Assembly: GCA_046045965.1 (NCBI GenBank)
Contig: JBJOKS010000003.1
Location: 64,001-128,000 of the forward strand
Source of the DNA: Cyanobacteriota bacterium
GTDB lineage: Bacteria > Cyanobacteriota > Cyanobacteriia > Cyanobacteriales > Nostocaceae
Length of the DNA stretch: 64,000 nucleotides
Direction: 5' to 3'
The translations under genes and the position numbers were made by a program. The first letter of the stretch is position 1. Each line of letters opens with the position of its first letter. This document shows, piece by piece, positions 19,635 to 38,455 of the stretch. The notes under the pieces were generated by a model. That model was not told the origin of the DNA. It searched no databases and saw only the letters and a program-made list of their open reading frames with translations.

Positions 19635-19958
19635 TTAAAATTTAACCTCATAGGGGTATTCGCGGATAATTAATTTTTTAAAATCCAATTGTGGCTTCTT
19701 TGTAAGTATTTACAAGGAGGCCTTTGCCTGTGGTTAGTTTTGAGAATCTGGAGCATCACTTTTTCAGGAAAAATATCATGGAAATTCTCGACGATATAGA
19801 TTTTTCAGTTTACAGTGATTGCAGAAAAGTGGAGACAATGCACGATGTGTCAGGAGTATAAAGTCACATTATCAACTTAAAGTGATCTTGATCTAGACAG
19901 ATATTGCAGTCTTCAGTTTAAATAGATTGATTGTGGCAAATTTAGCTTGGAAATAATA

Positions 19959-22100
19959 ATGACAACAACATTTAGCACTCCCAATAACATTCCAGCCGGA
20001 ACTAACACCTTTTCTGTAGATGTAGGAGACTTTAACGGAGACGGCAACCTAGATATAGTGGCAGCAAATGCTGGTGATCTAAACCCTGCAAGTAAAACTG
20101 TCACAGTTCTATTTGGTGATGGAGCAGGTGGTTTTACTGCTTCTACCGTGCCTGTGGGATCAACTTTAAATCCAATTGACGTATTTGTAAGCGACTTGGA
20201 CGGGGACGGCGACGATGACATAGCAGTAGCCAACTTTGATCTGCTAGGTCCTTTTTTCAATCCTGGTGACTCAACTCCCGCCAGCGATATCTCAATTCTT
20301 CTGAACGATGGGAGTGGTTCTTTTAGCGCAGCCACAGATTCTCCCTTTGCTGTTCCTGATGGACTGAGTGCGGTCTCATTAGGAGACTTCAACCATGATG
20401 GCTTTTTAGATGCAGCAGCAGGCGCACTTGACAATGATGATGTCTCAGTCTACTTCGGCAATGGACTGGGTACTTTTGACCCCACTCCTTTGACATATAC
20501 AATTGGTCGGACTACCCGTGATCTTGCTATTGGTGATGTGAATGGTGATGGCTTCGATGACTTGGCAATAGTCAGGAATGATGCCAACTCCGTTTTCGTG
20601 CGCTTAGGGACTGGTACAGATTTATTGTCGGGTGCGCCACAGTTCTCTGCTGATGAAACTCCTTTTCCTGTAGGATTAGATCCCCGTGGAGTAAAAATAG
20701 CCGACATCAACGGTGACGGCAACGCAGACTTAGTAGTAGCAAACAGTGGTAGTAATAATGTTTCCGTGCTACTAGGAAATGGCGATGGTACATTTGGTGA
20801 TGCTACTAACTTTACTGCCGGACCAGGTTCTCGCGATGCAGCTGTAGCCGACTTCGATGGCAACGGACTTCTCGATATTGTCACAGCTAACGAAACCGGA
20901 AACAATATTTCTGTGCTGTCCCGTTCCGTTAACCTTATCGGCACTGCTGGTGATGACATACTCACTGGTGCTGCTGGTGATGACACCCTCACAGGTTCTG
21001 GTGGCAATGACACCTTATTTGGTGGTCTTGGCAACGACTTGCTCAAGGGTGATACAGGCGCTGACTCTCTGGTTGGTGGTGCTGGTGATGACCGTTACGA
21101 AGTTGATGATCCGGGTGACACAGTTACCGAAGATGTTAATGGTGGTATAGATTTGGTTACTTCCTCTTTGAGTTTTATTTTAGGAGAGAACCTAGAAAAT
21201 CTGACTTTAAGGGGAACCGGCATTATCAATGGTACAGGTAACGCTCTAAATAACAGCATCATCGGCAATAGTAACAGTAACACCCTGACAGGTAATGGTG
21301 GTAACGACGAGCTTAGAGGTGGTGCTGGTGACGACACCTTATTTGGTGGAGACGGCAACGACACACTAGTTGGTGGTCTGGGCACTGATTCTCTGGTTGG
21401 TGGTGCTGGTGATGACACTTATGTCATTGATGGTTTGATTGACACAATTGTCGAAGCTGCTGGTGGTGGTACTGATACGGTTAGATCCTCAGTAGATGTT
21501 ACATTAGGAAGCAATTTAGAAAACCTGATTTTGAGTGGAACCGCTCTCAATGGTGGCGGTAACAGCCTAAATAATAGGATCGTTGCTAATCCTGCGGGCA
21601 ATAATACCCTGCGTGGTTTTGGTGGTAACGACACCCTGGTTGGTGCTGCTGGTAACGATAGCCTTGATGGTGGTGCTGGTAACGATGTCCTAGTTGGTGG
21701 TGCTGTTGACGACAACCTATTTGGTGCTAGTGGTAATGACGTGTTAATCGGTGGTTTAGGTAATGACAACCTGAATGGTGGTCTCGGTAGCGATATTTTC
21801 CGATTTAATAACCTAACTGAAGGGGTTGATACAATTCAAAGCTTTTCAAGCACCGACGACACGATTGAAGTATCAGCCACTGGTTTTGGTGGTGGTTTAC
21901 TTGCAGGTGTTTTAGCTGATTCAGCTTTCGTTTTTGGTGCAGGTATCACGACAGCTAGTGATGCTGCCCATCGATTCATTTACAACACTACCAATGGTGC
22001 TTTGTTCTTTGATGCCGACGGGATTGCAGGTGGTAGTATCCAGATAGCAACTCTCACCGGATCACCTGCTCTCACTGCTGCTGACATTGTTGTTATCTAA
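19959..22100 (+). CDS. FG-GAP (integrin-like beta-propeller) plus RTX calcium-binding repeat protein, probable T1SS substrate/adhesin
   Basis: Multiple GDFNGDGNLD-type repeats then many GGxGxDxL nonapeptides; C-terminal RFIYN..GALFFDADG; no Sec signal. Confidence 0.9.
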   Translation: MTTTFSTPNNIPAGTNTFSVDVGDFNGDGNLDIVAANAGDLNPASKTVTVLFGDGAGGFTASTVPVGSTLNPIDVFVSDLDGDGDDDIAVANFDLLGPFFNPGDSTPASDISILLNDGSGSFSAATDSPFAVPDGLSAVSLGDFNHDGFLDAAAGALDNDDVSVYFGNGLGTFDPTPLTYTIGRTTRDLAIGDVNGDGFDDLAIVRNDANSVFVRLGTGTDLLSGAPQFSADETPFPVGLDPRGVKIADINGDGNADLVVANSGSNNVSVLLGNGDGTFGDATNFTAGPGSRDAAVADFDGNGLLDIVTANETGNNISVLSRSVNLIGTAGDDILTGAAGDDTLTGSGGNDTLFGGLGNDLLKGDTGADSLVGGAGDDRYEVDDPGDTVTEDVNGGIDLVTSSLSFILGENLENLTLRGTGIINGTGNALNNSIIGNSNSNTLTGNGGNDELRGGAGDDTLFGGDGNDTLVGGLGTDSLVGGAGDDTYVIDGLIDTIVEAAGGGTDTVRSSVDVTLGSNLENLILSGTALNGGGNSLNNRIVANPAGNNTLRGFGGNDTLVGAAGNDSLDGGAGNDVLVGGAVDDNLFGASGNDVLIGGLGNDNLNGGLGSDIFRFNNLTEGVDTIQSFSSTDDTIEVSATGFGGGLLAGVLADSAFVFGAGITTASDAAHRFIYNTTNGALFFDADGIAGGSIQIATLTGSPALTAADIVVI

Positions 22101-26249: not shown

Positions 26250-27809
26250 ATGACTCAAACTAATGGTAATCAAATCAACGGTAACGCAAAAAAACAAAAT
26301 CTAGAATTACTGACACCTACAAAAAAGGCTAAGACAGATTCTTTAACTAATGCCTATCAAGATAGTTTTGAACAATCTATAGTCTTACGTCAATCACCAG
26401 TTTGGTCACGCACCATCATGATCACTCTGATGGTTGTAGCTTGTTTTGGAGTTGGTTGGGCTTATTTTGCCAAAATTGAACAAGTAGTACCCGCAGCAGG
26501 TCAATTAAAACCAGAAGGAACTGTCAAAGAAGTACAAGCTCCTATTAGTGGTGTTGTCAAAGCTGTTTATGTCAAAGATGGACAAGAAGTAAAAGCAGGG
26601 GACTTACTCTTAACATTTGAATCTGTTGCTACCCTCGCTGAATTAAGTTCCTTAAATAAAATTCGCGTTGCTTTAACCAGGGAAAATGATATTTATCGTC
26701 GCTTGATGGGAGCAAGCACAGGTATCACATCAGAATTGGATTTTTTACGTGGTAACTTACCAGCAGAAACAGCTTTTCTCCTCAAAAATCGAGCATCATT
26801 AGTATCAGAAAATGAACTACTGCGTTCTCAATTAAGAAACACAACACCAGATGCTGGTGAAGGAATTGATGAACAACAACTGCTCATAGCTGCTAAAACA
26901 GAATTAGATTCCCGCTCCGCTGCTGCTCAATTAGAAGTTGAAAAAATTAGAAAACAATTATCTCAAACAATATTAAGAAGGAAAGATACTCAAAATAGTT
27001 TAGCTATTCAAGATGGGATTTTAGATAAACTCCAAACATTAGCACAAGAAGGGGGAATTTCCCAACTACAATATCTTAACCAGAAACAACAAGTACAAAC
27101 TCTCCAAGCAGAAATAGATCAATTAATAGAGGAAGAAAAACGCCTCCAATTTGATATTGAGAGAGGACAGCAGCAAGTAACGAATACAGTAGCAGTTACT
27201 GATAAAAATGTTTTGGATCAGATAGCTAACAACAAAAAGCGAATTGCGGAAATTGATAGCCAATTCATGAGGATTATTCTGGAAAATGAGCAGAGATTGG
27301 CAGATATTAACAGTAGAATTTCTCAAGCACAATTAAATGTGAGATATCAAGAACTCCGCGCTCCTGTAGCGGGGATAATATTTGATATGCAAGCCAAGAA
27401 TGCGGGTTTTGTAGCCAACCCCACACAAAAATTATTGCAGATTGTACCTAATGATAAATATGTAGCTGAGGTATTTATCACCAATCAAGATATTGGGTTT
27501 GTACAGAAAGGTATGAAAGTAGATGTGAGAATTGATTCCTTTCCTTTTAGTCAGTTTGGAGATATTAAAGGTGAGGTAATTGATATTGGTTCAGATGCTT
27601 TACCACCTGATCAGATTCATCAATTTTATCGTTTTCCAGCTAGAGTCAGTTTAGAGAAACAAAGCATAGTAGCTCAAGGTAGAAGCATTCCTTTACAGTC
27701 TGGGATGTCTATTACTGCTAATATTAAGGTGCGTGAGGAACGCAGTGTATTGAGTTTGTTTACGGAGATGTTTACCAAGCAGGTTGATAGTTTGAAAGAG
27801 GTGAGGTAA
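26250..27809 (+). CDS. HlyD family membrane fusion protein
   Basis: TM segment, KEVQAPISGVV..V.VKDG, coiled coil, LRAPVAG, DIGFV, FPFSQFG. Confidence 0.95.
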   Translation: MTQTNGNQINGNAKKQNLELLTPTKKAKTDSLTNAYQDSFEQSIVLRQSPVWSRTIMITLMVVACFGVGWAYFAKIEQVVPAAGQLKPEGTVKEVQAPISGVVKAVYVKDGQEVKAGDLLLTFESVATLAELSSLNKIRVALTRENDIYRRLMGASTGITSELDFLRGNLPAETAFLLKNRASLVSENELLRSQLRNTTPDAGEGIDEQQLLIAAKTELDSRSAAAQLEVEKIRKQLSQTILRRKDTQNSLAIQDGILDKLQTLAQEGGISQLQYLNQKQQVQTLQAEIDQLIEEEKRLQFDIERGQQQVTNTVAVTDKNVLDQIANNKKRIAEIDSQFMRIILENEQRLADINSRISQAQLNVRYQELRAPVAGIIFDMQAKNAGFVANPTQKLLQIVPNDKYVAEVFITNQDIGFVQKGMKVDVRIDSFPFSQFGDIKGEVIDIGSDALPPDQIHQFYRFPARVSLEKQSIVAQGRSIPLQSGMSITANIKVREERSVLSLFTEMFTKQVDSLKEVR

Positions 27810-27822
27810 AAAGATAAAATGC

Positions 27823-27852
27823 AAAAGGTAAAGGTTAAAATTTGCCTTTTGC
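27823..27852. terminator. Probable bidirectional terminator between hlyD and the TGT-like gene
   Basis: AAAAGGTAAA...TTTGCCTTTT hairpin between convergent genes. Confidence 0.5.
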
Positions 27853-27934
27853 TTTGTTTAAAGGATGTTATTGTAGTTTGGATATTATAGTGATCGCACT
27901 TAATAAATCACTACAATCATCAAATTTTATTTGA

Positions 27935-28981
27935 TTAATTAGATATTTGTAATAATTTTAATTCCTCAATTAATTCTTTAATTAAAGGTCGGTAAATAGT
28001 ATTATCTAAATGTTCTTGATACCAAATTTCATAATCTCCTAATACTTTTAAATGCAATTCAATTTGTCTAGCTTCTTCTAGTAATACCCATAAATTATGG
28101 GTGGCTCGATTATAAAAACCAATTCCTCCACTCATTTTCAGACCTTCTAAACCATATTGTTTGCACGCTGGACATTGACATTTGTTAAGCTTTTTTTCTT
28201 CTTCTTCACTAATTTTTCTACCTCGCCAATTTCCTAATTCAGCAACTATGCGATCACCTGTTCCTGGTAGTTGAATTATTCCCCTAGCTGCACGATTTCG
28301 CCAACCACTAGAATCAACTGAATTAATACCTAGTAAGGCTGCTATATGTAAAGTTGCTGTTCCTCCAATGCCAAAAATATGTAGTTTTTTATTAGGAAAT
28401 TGTTGATGGAAATGAATTAAGTTATCTATAATTTTTTTATGCGGAATAGCTTTAGATGCACGTAATAAATTAGGAACAATTCCACCTAATGCTATATATG
28501 GCTTTTGAGATAAAGTTTGGCTGTTAACTATTTGTTCTATATATTCTTCTAAAAAATTACTAATATGAACTACTGGAACATAATCACCTTGATCATAACG
28601 AAAGTTCATATTCATGGTTTTTTTAAAACATAGTTCCTGTTCCTTTAAGGTCATTTTAGGAATGGGAATAAAATCTTGAGGAATAGGATACCAGTCTGGT
28701 TTTGCTTCTTTAATAAATTCTGCATATTCTTCTACAGGGACTTCTTGATTGTTTTTAACAAAGGAAAAAGCACCATTATCAAGATAAAATTTTACATTTT
28801 TAGGAACTCCTAAATATTCATGTAAACCTTGTTCCATTGCTTTTTTTCTTTGACTAGGCATTTTATGAAAATCAGCGTAGGAAACCATCACTGCTTGCAG
28901 GTCTTTGAGGTAATACGGTGATGTGGAGTCCCAAACACGGGGTTTTATTCCTTTTAGTCCAAAACCAGCGACTATTTGCAC
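27935..28981 (-). CDS. tRNA-guanine transglycosylase-fold protein (archaeal TGT/DpdA-like base-exchange enzyme)
   Basis: GLHEYLG, YLDNGAFS (DSGG-equivalent Asp), PQD, IALGG, LHIFGIG, SVDSSGW (nucleophile Asp), CQCPAC-x21-HNL zinc site; GTG start. Confidence 0.82.
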   Translation of the reverse strand: MQIVAGFGLKGIKPRVWDSTSPYYLKDLQAVMVSYADFHKMPSQRKKAMEQGLHEYLGVPKNVKFYLDNGAFSFVKNNQEVPVEEYAEFIKEAKPDWYPIPQDFIPIPKMTLKEQELCFKKTMNMNFRYDQGDYVPVVHISNFLEEYIEQIVNSQTLSQKPYIALGGIVPNLLRASKAIPHKKIIDNLIHFHQQFPNKKLHIFGIGGTATLHIAALLGINSVDSSGWRNRAARGIIQLPGTGDRIVAELGNWRGRKISEEEEKKLNKCQCPACKQYGLEGLKMSGGIGFYNRATHNLWVLLEEARQIELHLKVLGDYEIWYQEHLDNTIYRPLIKELIEELKLLQISN

Positions 28982-28987
28982 TACTTT

Positions 28988-30643
28988 TTAAACAATTTTT
29001 TGAATAAATGACTGATATTTAGATAATAGTTTTTGTTTGACATTTTGAGTCAACCACTTACCTACATCTTTAGAATATTTATGAGATTGTTGTGTAACAG
29101 ATGGTATTAAGTAAGTGATAGGATCATCACTCATAAAAGAATGATCTTCATCAACTTCAAAACTACAGTATTTAATAGCTGTTAATATCTTAGCAGATAT
29201 TGATTCAACATTATGACTATTTTCTGAGAAAAATTCATAACGTGGTAATAATTTCTTAGGACTTTTAGAATGTCCAATAAAAAACATATAAGTATGAAAT
29301 TTTTCGCATAAATCTTTGTAAGGTTCTATGTCAATACGACTTCTTTCATCTTCAATTCTTTGACGATACCTGTTAAAATACGATTCATCTAATGCTTTTA
29401 AATTAGCCTTTTCATTTAATGTTGCTCTGGTTGTAAATGACCTACGAATTAAACAAGTACACATAGCTTTTTTCAACCCATTTTCAAAACAATCTGGAGA
29501 GGATAACAGTAAAGTCATTGCTTGCCCATCAGTTAAAGTATAATTTCCTGTTTCCCAATTTTCATCTATGTATTTTGCGATATACCAATCTAAAACAGAA
29601 CTATATACTTTTAATCGAACATTTTTAGAAACTCCACAATAAATTCGATTAAAATCCCTTGCTGAGTTTATACACTCTCTCAGTGCTTGAATAGCTTTTC
29701 TGGTAAATTCACCTCGCCTATTATCAATGATATAATTATCTAAATAAGCATCTTGTGGAAACAAACTACCATCTCTAAGTATAATATCAGGGCAATCTTT
29801 ACCAGCGTTTAGTAAATATTCGTGGTCAAAAACATATTGGCCTACATCCATAGCTGAAGCGGTACAACGATGAAAATCTTCTGGTTCTAACTCATCTTGA
29901 TAAGATGGATCTATTAGCATCCATTGAAGTAAATCTTGAGTAGGTTCTGGATTAAATCTACCTTGATCAAATATAGCCTTACCATTATTTACTCTAACAA
30001 TTGCACCCGCAGCATTGTTTAATAAAAAAGGTACAGTCCGATTAAAAAAACGAGCAGGATAAGGAACTGAACTACGATGTTGACTTACGTCTGAAGAACC
30101 TATTAGAAAATTACCATTATTCCATAAACTATCATCACTTTCAATTGAATTGAGAAAATATTTTCCAACAATATGAGTAGCAAGGTGTTGTGTAATTAAT
30201 TCTTCATTTAATTCAACTTTCCACTTACGACTTCCTTTCGCTGGAGGAGTAATATTAACTTGTTCTTTTGTCATTCCAAAGCCACGAATAGCAACTTGTT
30301 TAAGTAATTTAGCTAACCGTTCTGACTGATTTGAATTTTCCTGTATTTCTTCTTTCAAATCCTGAAAAAATTCAAAATATAATTCTCTTGGATCTTTTTG
30401 TGATAGATGTTCTCTTGCCTTTTGAATAGTAGTTTCCCATTGATCTTGAGCTTTAACTAATTTGCTCATATATTCAACGGTTTCTTCCAATGGATCGTGA
30501 TTTTTTAGAGTATCATAACTATTAATTTGTTCACGCTCTAAAACTTGATAGTTTGAGTTTGCTTCACTTAAAATCTCATCAAAATTCATTTCTAATTGAA
30601 TATAATTGGAGTTAACATTACTAGATTTGTGCTTACGAGGCAT
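28988..30643 (-). CDS. NurA-like nuclease with N-terminal helical extension
   Basis: IGSSDVS, IILRDGSLFP, YCGVSK, PRYEF, IPSVTQQSHKYS correspond to NurA motifs; directly downstream of HerA. Confidence 0.72.
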   Translation of the reverse strand: MPRKHKSSNVNSNYIQLEMNFDEILSEANSNYQVLEREQINSYDTLKNHDPLEETVEYMSKLVKAQDQWETTIQKAREHLSQKDPRELYFEFFQDLKEEIQENSNQSERLAKLLKQVAIRGFGMTKEQVNITPPAKGSRKWKVELNEELITQHLATHIVGKYFLNSIESDDSLWNNGNFLIGSSDVSQHRSSVPYPARFFNRTVPFLLNNAAGAIVRVNNGKAIFDQGRFNPEPTQDLLQWMLIDPSYQDELEPEDFHRCTASAMDVGQYVFDHEYLLNAGKDCPDIILRDGSLFPQDAYLDNYIIDNRRGEFTRKAIQALRECINSARDFNRIYCGVSKNVRLKVYSSVLDWYIAKYIDENWETGNYTLTDGQAMTLLLSSPDCFENGLKKAMCTCLIRRSFTTRATLNEKANLKALDESYFNRYRQRIEDERSRIDIEPYKDLCEKFHTYMFFIGHSKSPKKLLPRYEFFSENSHNVESISAKILTAIKYCSFEVDEDHSFMSDDPITYLIPSVTQQSHKYSKDVGKWLTQNVKQKLLSKYQSFIQKIV

Positions 30644-30644
30644 T

Positions 30645-32186
30645 TTACTTATCCTTTTCTTTTAATTCACCAATTTTAGTAATCCAAGTATCTTGCATTT
30701 CTTGGAAAATATCGGGAGTTTTCCCACCTTCTGAATCTTCAGTATTACGTTTTCTAATTTTGACTGGAATTGTATGTTTAATACTTTCATAAGTTCCAGA
30801 AATTAAACAAGTTCCCTGTGGCATTTTAGGTAAAGCTCGTAACATTTCATCAGTTGCATCTGCTTTTACACCCTTAATAGCATCTAGCTGATCTGGCTCT
30901 AAAGCAAAAACTAATCGAGTATTGCATTGACGAATCACACTTTTATCAATATCAACAGGACTCTGTGTCATTAAAACCATACAAATTCCATGATGTCTTC
31001 CTATTCTGACTCCTTCTCGAATAATTTGTTTACAAGGACTACCTTCTCCCTGTGGAACAAATAAATGGGCTTCATCAACTACAGCTACATAAGGAGGTAT
31101 ATGACCTTTTAATCTCAAATTTTGTAGCTCTCTTAAAACTGCTGTTGCTATAGATTGAAGTTGTTTTGAAGTTAAATTTTTACAATTAATAGATAAACAG
31201 GGATATATGAGTTTTCGCCAGTCGGCAACACCATCTCCAAAAATTTTATACCCTTCTATACTTTTTTTTAACCTTCTTTCAACTGTGTCAATCACTCTTG
31301 GTAATTCTGCTTTTTTCGCTACATATTGTTCTGATATTTCTGGAATTTTATCTATCATATCTTTCAATCTAAATTTTGGAATATCATCATTTTGTAAATT
31401 AGTTTGTAAGTCTCCAAAAACTTTACTGACGATATCACGTTGTAAATCACTGTTTTTCATGGCAGATGGTAATAACTCTAAAAGTTCTGATTCAGTTAAT
31501 GATGAAATACGAATACTAAAATCCTTACCTGGTTCAACAACTTGACCACCATTTTTAATAACAAAATCTGAATACTCATCCTGAGTATCAATAAAAACAA
31601 CTGGTAAATTATGTTTAATTAACTCTTCTGCAACAACTCCCATTGCATAACTTTTACCGCTTCCAGTTGTTCCACAAATAAAGAAATGTCTTTGAATTGC
31701 TTGTTTTTTAAGAATAATATTTGTTTCAACACCTCCTACCGTTTTACCTAAAAATAAACCTTTTGATTTTTCTGTATCTATTCCTAAAACACGAACTACT
31801 TCACCAGAATCAGCGATAAAAACTTCAGAACCCGAATTAGGTAAATTTTGAGGTGATCTAATTTCTTTACCAATAAGTTCTTCTATTAAATCAGCTTCAA
31901 CTAACCGATAAATATCTGTACTATGTTCCTCTGACATAGATGGAATAGGAAGTCCTAGATTATCACTAACAGTTACACCAGCTACACTTTTATTTGGGTT
32001 ATTTTCATAACCACTCCGAATACGTCCAATTAAAATAGTTTTTTCTCCTTCTCTGGAAACATTCATTTTTACCAATGTGCCAGGTTTGACATCTTTTCCC
32101 GCTTTTAATTTAATACGTACTGTTTCAAAAGTTGGTGTTTCCTCATCAGAAATTACAGTACCTATCGGATATTTTTTACCACTCAT
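30645..32186 (-). CDS. HerA/FtsK-family ATPase (HAS barrel plus DUF87)
   Basis: N-terminal beta-rich HAS-like domain; RHFFICGTTGSGKS; FIDTQDEY; VVDEAHLFVP; REGVRIGRHHG..TQSP..IDKSVIRQCNT. Confidence 0.92.
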   Translation of the reverse strand: MSGKKYPIGTVISDEETPTFETVRIKLKAGKDVKPGTLVKMNVSREGEKTILIGRIRSGYENNPNKSVAGVTVSDNLGLPIPSMSEEHSTDIYRLVEADLIEELIGKEIRSPQNLPNSGSEVFIADSGEVVRVLGIDTEKSKGLFLGKTVGGVETNIILKKQAIQRHFFICGTTGSGKSYAMGVVAEELIKHNLPVVFIDTQDEYSDFVIKNGGQVVEPGKDFSIRISSLTESELLELLPSAMKNSDLQRDIVSKVFGDLQTNLQNDDIPKFRLKDMIDKIPEISEQYVAKKAELPRVIDTVERRLKKSIEGYKIFGDGVADWRKLIYPCLSINCKNLTSKQLQSIATAVLRELQNLRLKGHIPPYVAVVDEAHLFVPQGEGSPCKQIIREGVRIGRHHGICMVLMTQSPVDIDKSVIRQCNTRLVFALEPDQLDAIKGVKADATDEMLRALPKMPQGTCLISGTYESIKHTIPVKIRKRNTEDSEGGKTPDIFQEMQDTWITKIGELKEKDK

Positions 32187-32201
32187 TAAATAACTCCTTT
32201 T

Positions 32202-32927
32202 TTACAAATCCGAATAAATTTCTATACCTAATTGTTGTAACATTTGCCTTGCCTTAATAGAATGAAAACTACTAACAGGCAAATCCGTTAATAAACTGAC
32301 TAACCATTTTGGTGAGACTTTTTTATCATCAACTAATACGTACCAGGTTTGATAATTATAAGGTTTACCAGAACTTTCTATTAATCCCTGTCTAGCAATG
32401 ACCAAAATTTCAGCCTCACTTAAATTTAATTCAATACCTTTAAGCGTAGCTTTGCCTTTGATACTATTCTCTTTGGGAGTATGTAGGTATTCAGGAGGTT
32501 GACCATAAAGCCATTGATGTAATATTGAGAGCTTTTTACCTATTGTACCAGTAGCAATAGTCATAGTAAGATGCTCTGGTATATTTTTAGTATTAAATAT
32601 TTGTAAATAATCTTGACTCAAGCACAATAAACACCTGTGGTAAATTCCGCTTTGTAAAAATTCACGAAATTTAGCATTGACAGAAGACTGTAATTCTAGT
32701 GATCGCTTTTTATCCATCTTCTGATCATAATTAGGTATTAACTCATGACTAGATATCAGTCCAAACTTAGCAGACAGGATAAAAATATCTAAATTATGTG
32801 AAATTTGTTGCTGCAAAAACTTCCGTACCACACGAAATGCAACACCATTATAACGCTCAAGAGCAGGTAAATTTTCTACACTGCTATACTTAGATTTAGA
32901 ACAATTAATAATTAATAAATCTCTCAC
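32202..32927 (-). CDS. DUF6884/YaaA-like protein with C-terminal putative DNA-binding domain
   Basis: LIINCSKSK...PALERYNG..F...ILSAKFGLI....IPNYDQKM; C-terminal WYVLVDDKKVSPKWLVSLLT..F....ARQMLQQLGIEI. Confidence 0.72.
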   Translation of the reverse strand: MRDLLIINCSKSKYSSVENLPALERYNGVAFRVVRKFLQQQISHNLDIFILSAKFGLISSHELIPNYDQKMDKKRSLELQSSVNAKFREFLQSGIYHRCLLCLSQDYLQIFNTKNIPEHLTMTIATGTIGKKLSILHQWLYGQPPEYLHTPKENSIKGKATLKGIELNLSEAEILVIARQGLIESSGKPYNYQTWYVLVDDKKVSPKWLVSLLTDLPVSSFHSIKARQMLQQLGIEIYSDL

Positions 32928-33075
32928 TGATTTTAAAAATAGTAATAGTAAATTATACTATATTAATTGCATCATAAATTATATTATAAGAATTAGTGAG
33001 AAAACCCAAAGATAAACTAACCTGTAAAAATATTACATGATTGATATATAATTTATAACAAGGAGGTATTTTTAT

Positions 33076-33306
33076 ATGATGACTCTACAAGAAATTATCA
33101 ACTCTATTGAAAGTTTACCTATAGAAGACAGGGAGTATTTATTTGAGTTTCTCCGTCAACAAAGAGTAGAAAATCGCCGTTTAGAAATCTTAGCTAATGC
33201 CAAAGAAGTAACAGAAGCATTTAAAAATGGTACTGCAAAAAGGGGAAGTGTAGATGATTTGATTGCTGATTTACTAGGAGATGATGATGGAAGTTGTCTG
33301 GAGTAG
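33076..33306 (+). CDS. Putative type II antitoxin
   Basis: AGGAGG RBS; small helical protein ending in KRGSVDDLIADL; overlaps the toxin gene. Confidence 0.75.
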   Translation: MMTLQEIINSIESLPIEDREYLFEFLRQQRVENRRLEILANAKEVTEAFKNGTAKRGSVDDLIADLLGDDDGSCLE

Positions 33307-33568
33307 TGGATTCAAGCGATCTTTTAAGAAGATTATCAAGAAAAATCCGCAATTAAAAAATAAAATTATTGATGTCTTAAATCTCTTAGCAGATGACCCA
33401 TTTACACCATCTTTAAAGTCTCATAAATTAGGAGGAGATTTAGCGGGTTTGTGGTCTTGTTCTGTTACTTATGATTGTAGAATTATTTTTAATTTCTCTG
33501 AGGATGAGCAGTTGTTAGAAATGGTTATTTTATTGATTGATATTGGCAGCCACGACGAAGTTTATTAA
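33281..33568 (+). CDS. RelE/YafQ-family mRNA interferase toxin
   Basis: WSSGFKRSFKK, PSLKSHKLGG.L.GLWSCSV.YD.RIIF, DIGSHDEVY. Confidence 0.88.
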   Translation: MMMEVVWSSGFKRSFKKIIKKNPQLKNKIIDVLNLLADDPFTPSLKSHKLGGDLAGLWSCSVTYDCRIIFNFSEDEQLLEMVILLIDIGSHDEVY

Positions 33569-33644
33569 ATAGTAATGCAAATTGCTAATCATCTCATTGA
33601 AACTGCTAATAGCTAATTGTAATGTGTAATGAAATCCCAGTTTT

Positions 33645-33838
33645 CATCCTGTAAATCCTCAAATCCTGGAAATCCTGATTCTGACAATGGAAAACCCTAT
33701 ATAATATGCGCCCACAGTTTCCCACTTATAACATAAGTCTACAATATATTTTTCAGCTTGTCAAGTCTTGAAGCAAAACAAAAATGGAAAAAGCTCAATC
33801 CTGAAAATCCTAAAATCCTGGACATCCTGATTCTGACA
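33645..33838 (-). repeat. Second copy of promoter-leader-CAGGAT element with a flanking TGTCAGAATCAGGAT repeat unit
   Basis: Reverse complement of 33645-33772 aligns with 6260-6386; minus-strand TTGACA (33759-33764), 17 nt, TAGACT (33736-33741); extra repeat unit at 33797-33838. Confidence 0.8.
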
Positions 33839-33873
33839 AAGTAGGGTGAGCATAACCCACCCCACATTTAAAT

Positions 33874-36466: not shown

Positions 36467-36517
36467 AAAAAGTAGGGGGTAACGGTCCAGGTAGTGCAAC
36501 CTCGTTAAGCCCTTACA

Positions 36518-36654
36518 GGAGGCAGGAGGCAGGAGGCAAGAGGCAAGAGGCAAGAGGCAAGAGGCAGAAGGCAGAGGAGAAGATTTTTCCCCCTTGCACC
36601 CTGCACCTTGCTCCTTTTCCTCTTAACTGTCACCTGTCACCTGTTCCCTGTTCC

Positions 36655-36655
<1 letters not shown>
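36518..36655. repeat. STRR arrays (GGCAAGA/GGCAGGA; CTGTCAC; CTGTTCC) between gap1 and pyk
   Basis: Tandem heptamers. Confidence 0.85.
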
Positions 36656-37671
<1,016 letters not shown>

Positions 37672-37858: not shown

Positions 37859-38455
37859 TTACTTGATAGCACTCGTTAAAATACCCATAATTTTATCAAC
37901 ATCATTTAAAAAATACTCAACCAAATCAACCTGCACTCGTTCACCCGATAACTTTAAAAACTTCCAAATCTCCCCAGTAGTCACTACACCATAAATTTCT
38001 GTAATTTCATTTTCTTCTCGTTCATTAAATAACTTAGCGGCATACATTTCTGCCATACATTGCCCTAAACCACCTTTAATATTTTCCTTCTTGGCTTCAA
38101 CAATTAAAATTACAGGTGCGTTAATCAATAAAAACTCAGGAGAACGAGTAATAATAAAATCGCAATTTCCGCTTAAACCCTGACTAGGATCAATATTAAA
38201 TTCTACACCAGAAAATAAACTAATTTCTTGAGATTTCTTTTTGGTTAACTCTAATAAAATTGGTGTGATAATCATCTCAGAACGAGATTTTTCTGTATTA
38301 CTAGCCAAAGCAAAAGGAACATTATAAGCTAACGTTTCCTGTAAATAATCACTAACTAGTAATGGTGCAACTTCAGCAAAAATATTATCTCTCGTAGAAA
38401 TATTGAGATGCAGGTTTTTTTTGACAGTTTCTAAAGTAAAATCACTGTAAGACAT
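37859..38455 (-). CDS. PD-(D/E)xK nuclease-fold hypothetical protein
   Basis: TEKSRSE.II.PIL; LSGNCDF; IVEAKKE; GLGQC.AEM; YGVVTTGEIWKF. Confidence 0.8.
   Translation of the reverse strand: MSYSDFTLETVKKNLHLNISTRDNIFAEVAPLLVSDYLQETLAYNVPFALASNTEKSRSEMIITPILLELTKKKSQEISLFSGVEFNIDPSQGLSGNCDFIITRSPEFLLINAPVILIVEAKKENIKGGLGQCMAEMYAAKLFNEREENEITEIYGVVTTGEIWKFLKLSGERVQVDLVEYFLNDVDKIMGILTSAIK

Follow-up and report, generated by a model that had tools for sequence, protein, structure and literature searches.

In the Dpd system of Salmonella Montevideo (dpdA-K), DpdA, DpdB, and DpdC modify the DNA and DpdD-K restrict it, and DpdC turns preQ0-containing DNA into ADG-containing DNA independently of DpdA and DpdB (PMC10164549). 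Here we describe a four-gene operon, DUF6884-HerA-NurA-TGT, that lies in a 64,000-nt stretch of contig JBJOKS010000003.1 (assembly GCA_046045965.1; the whole stretch is called the window, and coordinates are positions in it), and we compare this operon with Dpd and with other described systems. We consider it probable that the operon works as a mobile conflict system, one in which guanine exchange in DNA is coupled to HerA-NurA. To the more specific reading, in which the operon is a compact, mobile, DpdB-less, and Dpd-like restriction-modification system whose TGT enzyme and DUF6884 protein would write a 7-deazaguanine mark and whose HerA-NurA pair would destroy unmarked DNA, we give about even odds (probability ∼0.5).

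Like Dpd (PMC10164549), the operon encodes a TGT-superfamily enzyme whose catalytic Asp pair and Zn site are the same, together with a YaaA/DUF328-superfamily partner similar to DpdC; the two also share a link to the preQ0 pathway and the predicted logic of marking self DNA and restricting non-self DNA. They are not alike in every respect, however: no DpdB is encoded in the operon. To judge from its sequence, the TGT of the window belongs to a separate clade and is not a DpdA orthologue. Its partner is a DUF6884 protein with an extra C-terminal domain, whereas DpdC is a DUF328 protein. HerA and NurA stand in place of the seven or eight DpdD-K genes, none of which is present in the operon, and the whole set comprises four genes in ∼5 kb, compared with ∼20 kb for Dpd.

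A small modification function is also combined with a HerA/NurA-like pair in the phosphorothioate system TdpABC (PMC12914056). Unlike the operon in the window, this system, which was described from extremophilic bacteria, has a backbone phosphorothioate introduced by TdpC in place of base exchange and contains neither a TGT nor a DUF6884 protein. TdpA and TdpB take the HerA-like and NurA-like roles, and TdpAB chain G (PDB 8wfd) was the second-best structural match of our NurA model (3.9e-5). The HerA-NurA end-resection complexes of S. solfataricus, T. kodakarensis, and D. radiodurans likewise consist of a DUF87 HerA with Walker A and B motifs and, encoded by an adjacent gene, a NurA that combines the RNase H/PIWI-like fold with motifs II and III. 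In contrast to these, the order in the window is HerA then NurA, the 551-aa NurA is extended at its N terminus by a helical region and departs from the usual motif I, and the pair is embedded between putative DNA-modification genes on a mobile insert.

The loci termed BREX-related capture (BRC; HerA/FtsK, GNAT, and TGT), which are described by comparative genomics only (PMC12839542), resemble the operon in that a HerA-family translocase and a TGT homologue occur in one predicted defense locus, and DpdB and DpdC are both absent, as they are here. The defining genes of BRC, however, are PglZ, DUF6079 (BrxC-like), a STAND NTPase, and DUF4007, and no such domain was found in the operon or its flanks; BRC also lacks NurA and DUF6884, and a TGT occurs in a subset of its loci only. 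Sir2-HerA and DUF4297-HerA couple a HerA hexamer to an effector in anti-phage immunity, and the PADLOC HerA models matched the HerA of the window at 1.8e-28. These are nevertheless two-gene, modification-independent systems with an NADase or a PD-(D/E)xK-type nuclease as effector, whereas the effector in the window is NurA and a candidate writer pair is attached to it. The initial annotation of this DNA knew of no named system with such an architecture, and our searches bear this out. No model set in PADLOC v2 covered the four-gene cassette, the sole candidate-system match being PDC-M57A on the DUF6884 protein (5.9e-9; the other three proteins matched no PDC-M57 model at E <= 0.1). We found no published account in which HerA and NurA are joined by DpdA or a guanine transglycosylase, in a search that left the supplementary tables of PMC12839542 and PMC10516641 outside, nor did we find a publication under the name PDC-M57 or one on DUF6884 that concerns such a cassette.

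The open reading frame (ORF) listing of the window gave four co-oriented minus-strand ORFs with intergenic gaps of 15, 1, and 6 nt (Table 1). These coordinates reproduce exactly those of the initial annotation, which was also correct about the AGGAG ribosome-binding site ahead of herA (8 nt 5' of the ATG) and about the AT-richness of the segment (GC 0.30–0.33 over ∼27.5–33.5 kb compared with 0.38–0.45 in the flanks). The position that it had given, between hlyD and tal and beside a toxin-antitoxin (TA) pair, agrees with the families of the flanking and neighboring genes: on one side lies an HlyD-family membrane-fusion gene with its ABC exporter, and on the other transaldolase (tal) followed by pyruvate kinase. 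We regard the operon as horizontally acquired.

Table 1. Features of the operon and of the insert that carries it, in window coordinates
Feature	Position	Strand	Remarks
Gene 1, two-domain DUF6884 protein, 241 aa	32202..32927	-	GTG start; Pfam PF21818
Gene 2, HerA-type hexameric ATPase/translocase, 513 aa	30645..32186	-	Pfam DUF87; AGGAG 8 nt upstream
Gene 3, divergent NurA-family nuclease, 551 aa	28988..30643	-	Pfam NurA; helical N-terminal extension of ∼125 residues
Gene 4, single-domain TGT-superfamily base-exchange enzyme, 348 aa	27935..28981	-	GTG start; Pfam TGT
Hairpin, 12-bp stem	27821..27852		Between the convergent stops of hlyD (27809) and the TGT gene (27935)
AT-rich intergenic region, 148 nt	32928..33075		From the operon to the divergent TA pair
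Type II TA pair	33076..33568	+	76-aa ORF overlapping the gene of a 95-aa RelE/YafQ-family toxin
Low-GC strain-specific insert, ∼6 kb (operon and TA pair)	27810..33830		Between conserved hlyD and tal; flank matches stop at 27809 and restart at 33831

We next considered each of the four proteins. The TGT enzyme scored 31.2 bits with Pfam TGT (cut-off 26.3) and 41.8 bits (1.5e-11) with PADLOC DpdA (PDLC02807), and its best profile match in any library was the phage TGT family PHROG 887 (1.3e-17). Across 18 sequences, D68 (in LDNGAF), D103, D223 (in VDSSGW), and the Zn ligands C268, C270, C273, and H295 are invariant, and in profile comparisons the Asp and Zn motifs aligned to those of ArcTGT (1iq8, 1.8e-9) and DpdA (7ui4, 1.7e-4). 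The corresponding Asp residues of DpdA are the nucleophile and the general acid/base (PMC10164549). With its catalytic Asp and Zn residues kept, the enzyme thus appears to be active. It has an Arg-rich insert (∼226–255) that is not in ArcTGT. The family comprised 1516 proteins at E <= 0.001 in a library clustered at 90% identity, the top 120 of which are 59–87% identical.

For both the DUF6884 protein and NurA, searches of profiles against PDB sequences gave no significant match, and fold searches were therefore needed. The initial annotation of gene 1 as YaaA/DUF6884-like was confirmed by PF21818 (42.7 bits; cut-off 30) and by the fold: the top match of the AF2 model (pLDDT 90.2) was E. coli YaaA (5caj; Foldseek 2.2e-4; VIA Z 10.3, 142 residues aligned, rmsd 3.3). 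The N-terminal domain resembles YaaA and DpdC and contains the motifs CxxxK (C9 and K13) and LSAxxG (L51, S52, and A53), which are motifs of the DUF6884 family (PMC11701544); in an alignment of 30 relatives, C9, K13, L51, and S52 are invariant and A53 is at least nearly so. The C-terminal domain (∼160–241), with invariant W195, K207, and W208, was barely probed by the fold searches. The DUF6884 family contained 621 clusters at E <= 1e-30 (50%-identity library), and the best 150 relatives are 222–416 aa long, so that there is no TGT fusion among them. A search for longer TGT-family proteins as possible fusions found none, and the one for longer DUF6884 proteins found one, P0121 of Planktothrix agardhii (523 aa). 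In P0121 an in-frame deletion joins DUF6884 residues 1–74 to HerA from residue ∼59 (79 and 73% identical to the corresponding proteins of the window), and it is a decayed cassette copy rather than a functional fusion. Prediction of a TGT-DUF6884 complex scored 0.00, which is uninformative in either direction on binding.

The HerA assignment of the initial annotation rests on a DUF87 core (PF01935) at 84.3 bits (cut-off 23.2; 1.7e-23) together with Walker A (G172–S179, with K178) and Walker B (V367–E372) motifs, and is firm. HerA_C matched at 1.4e-10, NCBIfam HerA_Thermprot at 3.1e-22 (under the equivalog cut-off), and the closest solved relative was S. solfataricus HerA (4d2i, 2.2e-14). Its partner passed the Pfam NurA threshold narrowly (PF09376, 22.3 bits; cut-off 21), and the family, as initially annotated, was confirmed by the fold. 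The AF2 model (pLDDT 74, pTM 0.75) had S. solfataricus NurA (2ygk, 1e-7) as its best Foldseek match, with the HerA-NurA complexes 9x1l and 7f6d (T. kodakarensis and D. radiodurans) following TdpAB, and six of the seven matches at E <= 0.001 were NurA chains, the remaining one being TdpAB chain G. The described NurA motifs are xDG (I), xxDG (II), and AHxxx (III) (PMC13748450). In 13 sequences of the window's NurA family, D185, D291 (RDG, motif II, with G292), D498/H501, and H521 (motif III-like) are invariant, and motif I is altered, with D185-V in place of D-G.

To determine how often these genes occur together, we conducted a TGT-anchored scan with one genome per species, which recovered 95 relatives, and classified loci with hidden Markov models built from clustered neighbors and scanned over all six frames; locus counts refer to the best 80 of the 95. 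The loci came from Cyanobacteriota, Chloroflexota, Acidobacteriota, Planctomycetota, Bacteroidota, Armatimonadota, Gemmatimonadota, Deinococcota, Actinomycetota, Bacillota, Nitrospirota, and Pseudomonadota. All four families were present in 47/80 loci, 12 of them in the window order and 35 in the order DUF6884-NurA-HerA-TGT. The former arrangement (type I) accounted for 16 loci, of which 12 were complete and 4 ended by a contig edge, and the latter (type II), which has a different NurA and a different HerA, for 39. A further four loci combined type II with a third module, nine had the third module without type I or II, six had DUF6884 and TGT only, and six had <500 nt 5' of the TGT, so that their class could not be assigned. 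DUF6884 was found in 57/80 loci; among the 23 without it, 16 have <2.8 kb of upstream sequence and 7 are of the third (Mre11/Rad50) type.

In a reverse search, type I NurA was used to query metagenome contigs, which yielded 36 loci. Among those assessable, TGT lay directly downstream in 22/24, HerA upstream in 27/27, and DUF6884 was present in 15/15 (13 co-oriented); of the two exceptions for TGT, one has the TGT on the opposite strand and the other is a NurA fragment without TGT. The TGT-anchored counts taken with these independent NurA-anchored counts therefore show that the four-gene association is obligate and not due to chance. A lack of co-occurrence in other genomes, which had been named in advance as grounds for rejecting the proposal, was not what we found, the full set recurring across many phyla. 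The four-gene architecture put forward initially is thus recurrent, but it is not a single layout: it is one of several forms around a constant TGT, usually with DUF6884.

The third module has the order M78/IrrE-like peptidase, 352-aa protein, ∼620-aa P-loop protein, Mre11/SbcD-like phosphoesterase, Rad50/SbcC-like ATPase (1050 aa), and TGT (L013:1-9023; also L016, L018, L060, L045, L079, L046, L064, and L086), and DUF6884 is mostly absent from it. The 352-aa protein has two DG motifs, and in the named Atlas clusters nearest to it Pfam NurA is found on 11% of members (score 0.95); the C terminus of the P-loop protein is weakly HerA/mad8-like. As a whole, this module resembles the full archaeal Mre11-Rad50-HerA-NurA set. 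It shares one TGT with a type II cassette in L046, L064, and L086, and in L063 as judged by a weak HerA fragment. In two other loci a Z1-domain (PF10593) protein of 717–747 aa lies between DUF6884 and TGT and replaces HerA-NurA (L076:5699-7942 and L083:5817-7970), and this is a fourth effector choice. Comparison of type I with type II NurA by hhalign gave no significant match, and comparison of the 352-aa protein with either of them gave none; the type I and type II NurA forms are connected solely via Pfam NurA.

A quick maximum-likelihood tree of 76 TGT sequences grouped them roughly by host phylum, with types I and II interleaved, and its starred branches force at least nine switches between modules. 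The closest relatives of the window proteins illustrate this, as the TGT with 85% identity and the DUF6884 protein with 75% identity both sit in a type II cassette (L007). A constant writer with exchangeable nuclease/ATPase modules is a design like that of restriction-modification systems.

We also asked which genes adjoin the cassettes. A YhhQ/Vut_1 gene was found in 13/80 loci; in 11 of these 13 it is co-oriented and 0–900 nt from the cassette, with 7 of those abutting it or within ∼160 nt. YhhQ is a preQ0 transporter (PMC5372724). QueC occurred in 6/80 loci, YhhQ/Vut_1 or QueC in 18/80, QueD in one locus, and a canonical tgt in another. We estimate the chance that a given single-copy gene falls inside a 17-kb neighborhood at well below 1%. 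The genome from which the window comes has queC, a queD-family gene, queF, and canonical tgt (513 bits), and preQ0 is therefore made in the cell; Vut_1 was not found in this genome (92% complete). In a Chloroflexaceae locus, a DUF366 (PF04017) gene (L040:1654-2370) lies between TGT and YhhQ/Vut_1, and it may be a further accessory of the deazaguanine pathway.

The distribution of the TGT family is patchy: it was present in 3/41 related genomes and in none of the three other genomes of the same genus. In one of the latter, G001, sequence matches to the flanks run to the hlyD stop and start again short of tal, and the hlyD-tal site holds 7.5 kb with Cas3, Cas5d, Csd1, and Cas7 (type I-C; C14:71376-78917, L097), and because of these cas genes we regard the interval as a variable defense hot spot. 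The neighbors of homologous loci include TA, PIN, AbiEii, Schlafen/AlbA, Uma2, transposase, Tn7/TnsD, Mob, and resolvase genes, and some loci are on plasmids. Disrupted copies were found as well, with a DDE transposase within the NurA-HerA segment (L049) or between HerA and TGT (L041), an HNH-domain ORF in the HerA region (L020), or internal deletions that leave DUF6884 and a truncated TGT (L082, L014, and L015). Such turnover is typical of defense genes.

A lone TGT of the same clade, with 65% identity, was found on a viral contig that also has a P22-like coat gene (IMG/VR; L098:5809-7032); its neighbors are two genes of PAPS-reductase-like type and two of PHROG 34599, and HerA, NurA, and DUF6884 are absent. 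Phages are known to carry orphan methyltransferases, and by comparison with these the phage TGT may be a copy of the writer used for counter-defense by imitating the host mark. The nearest GenBank phage matches to the TGT of the window were the TGT homologues of STSV1/2 (27% identity).

In the restriction-modification reading, the writer module would consist of the TGT-fold enzyme and the DUF6884 protein. The TGT would take guanine out of host DNA and put in preQ0, or a closely related 7-deazaguanine, supplied by the host queuosine pathway, and would do so by double displacement, as described for DpdA (PMC10164549), with D68 as general acid/base and D223 as nucleophile. The DUF6884 protein would bind DNA and either convert the inserted base, which is the part of DpdC, or read the mark, and its invariant Cys9 and Lys13 might attack the nitrile. 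In the killer module, the HerA hexamer would feed DNA into the NurA nuclease so that DNA without the mark is destroyed, and HerA might also provide the ATP-driven step that DpdB gives canonical DpdA. The initial annotation had proposed a modification-restriction system of this kind, with the DpdB and DpdD-K parts replaced. The gene set, the preQ0 linkage, and the hot spot speak for that proposal, and TdpABC sets a precedent for joining a modification enzyme to a HerA/NurA-like nuclease; marking, cutting, discrimination of self from non-self DNA, and phage restriction are what it would predict.

Several results weigh against this reading. The label TGT/DpdA-like given initially to gene 4 holds for the superfamily, to which both the Pfam score and the aligned motifs assign it, but not for DpdA orthology, as the NCBIfam DpdA equivalog model (NF041059) gave 37.4 bits (E 1.3e-9) over residues 43–226 only, compared with a cut-off of 200. 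Among solved structures the TGT profile scored better with the tRNA-acting ArcTGT (40 bits) than with DpdA (24 bits), and for this reason DNA is a substrate that we infer for the enzyme. Bacterial DpdA requires DpdB in vitro (PMC10164549), and in a search confined to the operon and its flanking ORFs no protein matched a DpdB/ParB model from Pfam, PADLOC, or NCBIfam. The DUF6884 protein fell under the cut-off of PF03883 YaaA/DUF328 (28.0 compared with 29.6 bits), matched PADLOC DpdC (4.7e-6) over ∼60 residues only, and belongs to a family that has been proposed to recognize abasic or mismatched sites (PMC11701544). It is, moreover, dispensable in some forms because the seven Mre11/Rad50-type loci are without it. 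Most loci, including that of the window, have no preQ0 gene nearby, and the phage with an orphan TGT was the only one in 2.9 million viral contigs.

The same genes could also act in the manner of a type IV system, in which the host is unmarked, the TGT attacks guanine analogues in phage DNA and leaves a covalent intermediate or abasic site, the Cys and Lys of DUF6884 recognize or cleave this site, and the resulting nick or break loads HerA-NurA to degrade the invading DNA. Such a system would have no need of DpdB; phages with 7-deazaguanine DNA are common (PMC10516641), HerA-NurA requires ends or nicks (PMC13748450), and the DUF6884 member YfjM was recovered binding abasic and RNA-base lesions, with a model in which the base is flipped (PMC11701544). 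The N-terminal domain of the DUF6884 protein also has a middling similarity to MUG/UDG glycosylases (Z 6.3–6.7), which is inside the noise band. We nevertheless regard this explanation as unlikely: the recurrent operonic preQ0 importer or QueC, and also QueD, point to a system that consumes preQ0, for which a sensor or eraser would have no use; TGT chemistry normally finishes base exchange and leaves no abasic site; and the lone TGT on a phage better suits a protective writer. Alternatively, the operon could serve DNA repair or damage tolerance, with HerA-NurA (or Mre11/Rad50 in relatives) resecting breaks and the TGT and YaaA-like proteins replacing or shielding damaged guanines. HerA-NurA and Mre11-Rad50 are indeed archaeal end-resection machinery, YaaA is annotated as a peroxide-stress DNA-binding protein, and an Fpg gene adjoins one locus (L033). 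The distribution, however, is patchy, the low-GC insert lies at a site with cas genes in a sister genome, copies are plasmid-borne and several are degraded by insertion sequences or deletion (L041, L049, L082, and P0121), and the nuclease modules have been swapped repeatedly. An accessory conflict system therefore accounts better for these loci than housekeeping repair, which would also leave the preQ0 supply genes unexplained, and we consider repair quite improbable.

Least probable of all, in our estimate, is a paralogous TGT that acts on tRNA and whose product controls or complements HerA-NurA, for example by tRNA remodeling during infection. ArcTGT is the top match among solved structures and source databases name the relatives tRNA-ribosyltransferase, but the protein is a bare catalytic domain of 348 aa that lacks the C-terminal domains found in ArcTGT (582 residues), and viral DpdA-family proteins are taken as a signature of DNA 7-deazaguanine (PMC10516641). 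Because a canonical tgt is already present elsewhere in the genome and the operon partners are all DNA enzymes, we hold a tRNA-acting enzyme to be highly unlikely.

If the restriction-modification reading is true, 7-deazaguanine marking of DNA extends past bulky Dpd islands and phages into a 5-kb cassette found in many phyla. The cassette would then be a minimal, tractable system in which to study what drives a TGT into duplex DNA when DpdB is missing, what role DUF6884 plays, and how HerA-NurA discriminates the mark, and it would provide the toolbox with a small enzyme for base exchange in DNA. More tentatively, and with a confidence below even odds, we suggest that the loci represent a large and unnamed superfamily of 7-deazaguanine immune systems, in which one writer, formed by a new TGT clade mostly together with a two-domain DUF6884 protein, is coupled interchangeably to at least four DNA-destroying modules, HerA would take the place of the DpdB ParB-ATPase in driving base exchange in duplex DNA, and the Cys-Lys pair of DUF6884 would act by a new chemistry on the preQ0 nitrile in DNA. 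The four modules would be two mutually unrecognizable HerA-NurA pairs in opposite order, the set of M78, NurA-like, ATPase, and Mre11/Rad50-like proteins, and the Z1-domain protein.

With respect to the remaining features of the insert, the hairpin downstream of the TGT gene probably ends the operon as a terminator acting in both directions; the scan for terminator-like sites gave 4 compared with 2.3 expected, which is weak evidence taken alone. The intergenic region upstream of the operon is the presumed promoter region. A promoter scan returned 30 sites compared with 29.7 expected from shuffles, and because there is no excess, we claim no promoter. Near-identical contigs over parts of the operon were found in two metatranscriptome runs from different studies; as DNA carry-over is possible, we do not count them as proof of transcription.

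The toxin of the TA pair (33281–33568) matched Pfam YafQ_toxin (1.7e-11) and NCBIfam RelE_StbE (3.2e-10), and the 76-aa ORF upstream of it matched no family in the family-library scans. The pair is co-cargo of the insert; we treat it as a candidate neighbor only and do not assign it to the system. At the right edge of the insert, a 42-nt repeat of AAATCCT-like heptamers occurs at 33646–33687 and 33798–33839, and it occurs again at ∼36517–36660. Dozens of copies, 90–98% identical, are dispersed over contigs of the three same-genus genomes that were searched (G001–G003). Considered as a CRISPR remnant, these repeats were ruled out by their heptamer basis and their single, scattered placement over many contigs, and they are a dispersed cyanobacterial-type repeat and not a CRISPR array.

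Two further genes of the window deserve mention. About 4 kb from the insert, where GC falls locally, a gene at 37859–38455 (minus strand) encodes a 198-aa protein that has no Pfam match and matches the PADLOC PD_DExK model, annotated as Cas-associated, at 5.4e-53. On the other side, a gene at 19947–22100 (plus strand) upstream of a cNMP-binding C39-ABC exporter and HlyD encodes, to judge from its translation, a 717-aa FG-GAP/RTX-like repeat protein, which is probably a type I secretion substrate of that exporter.

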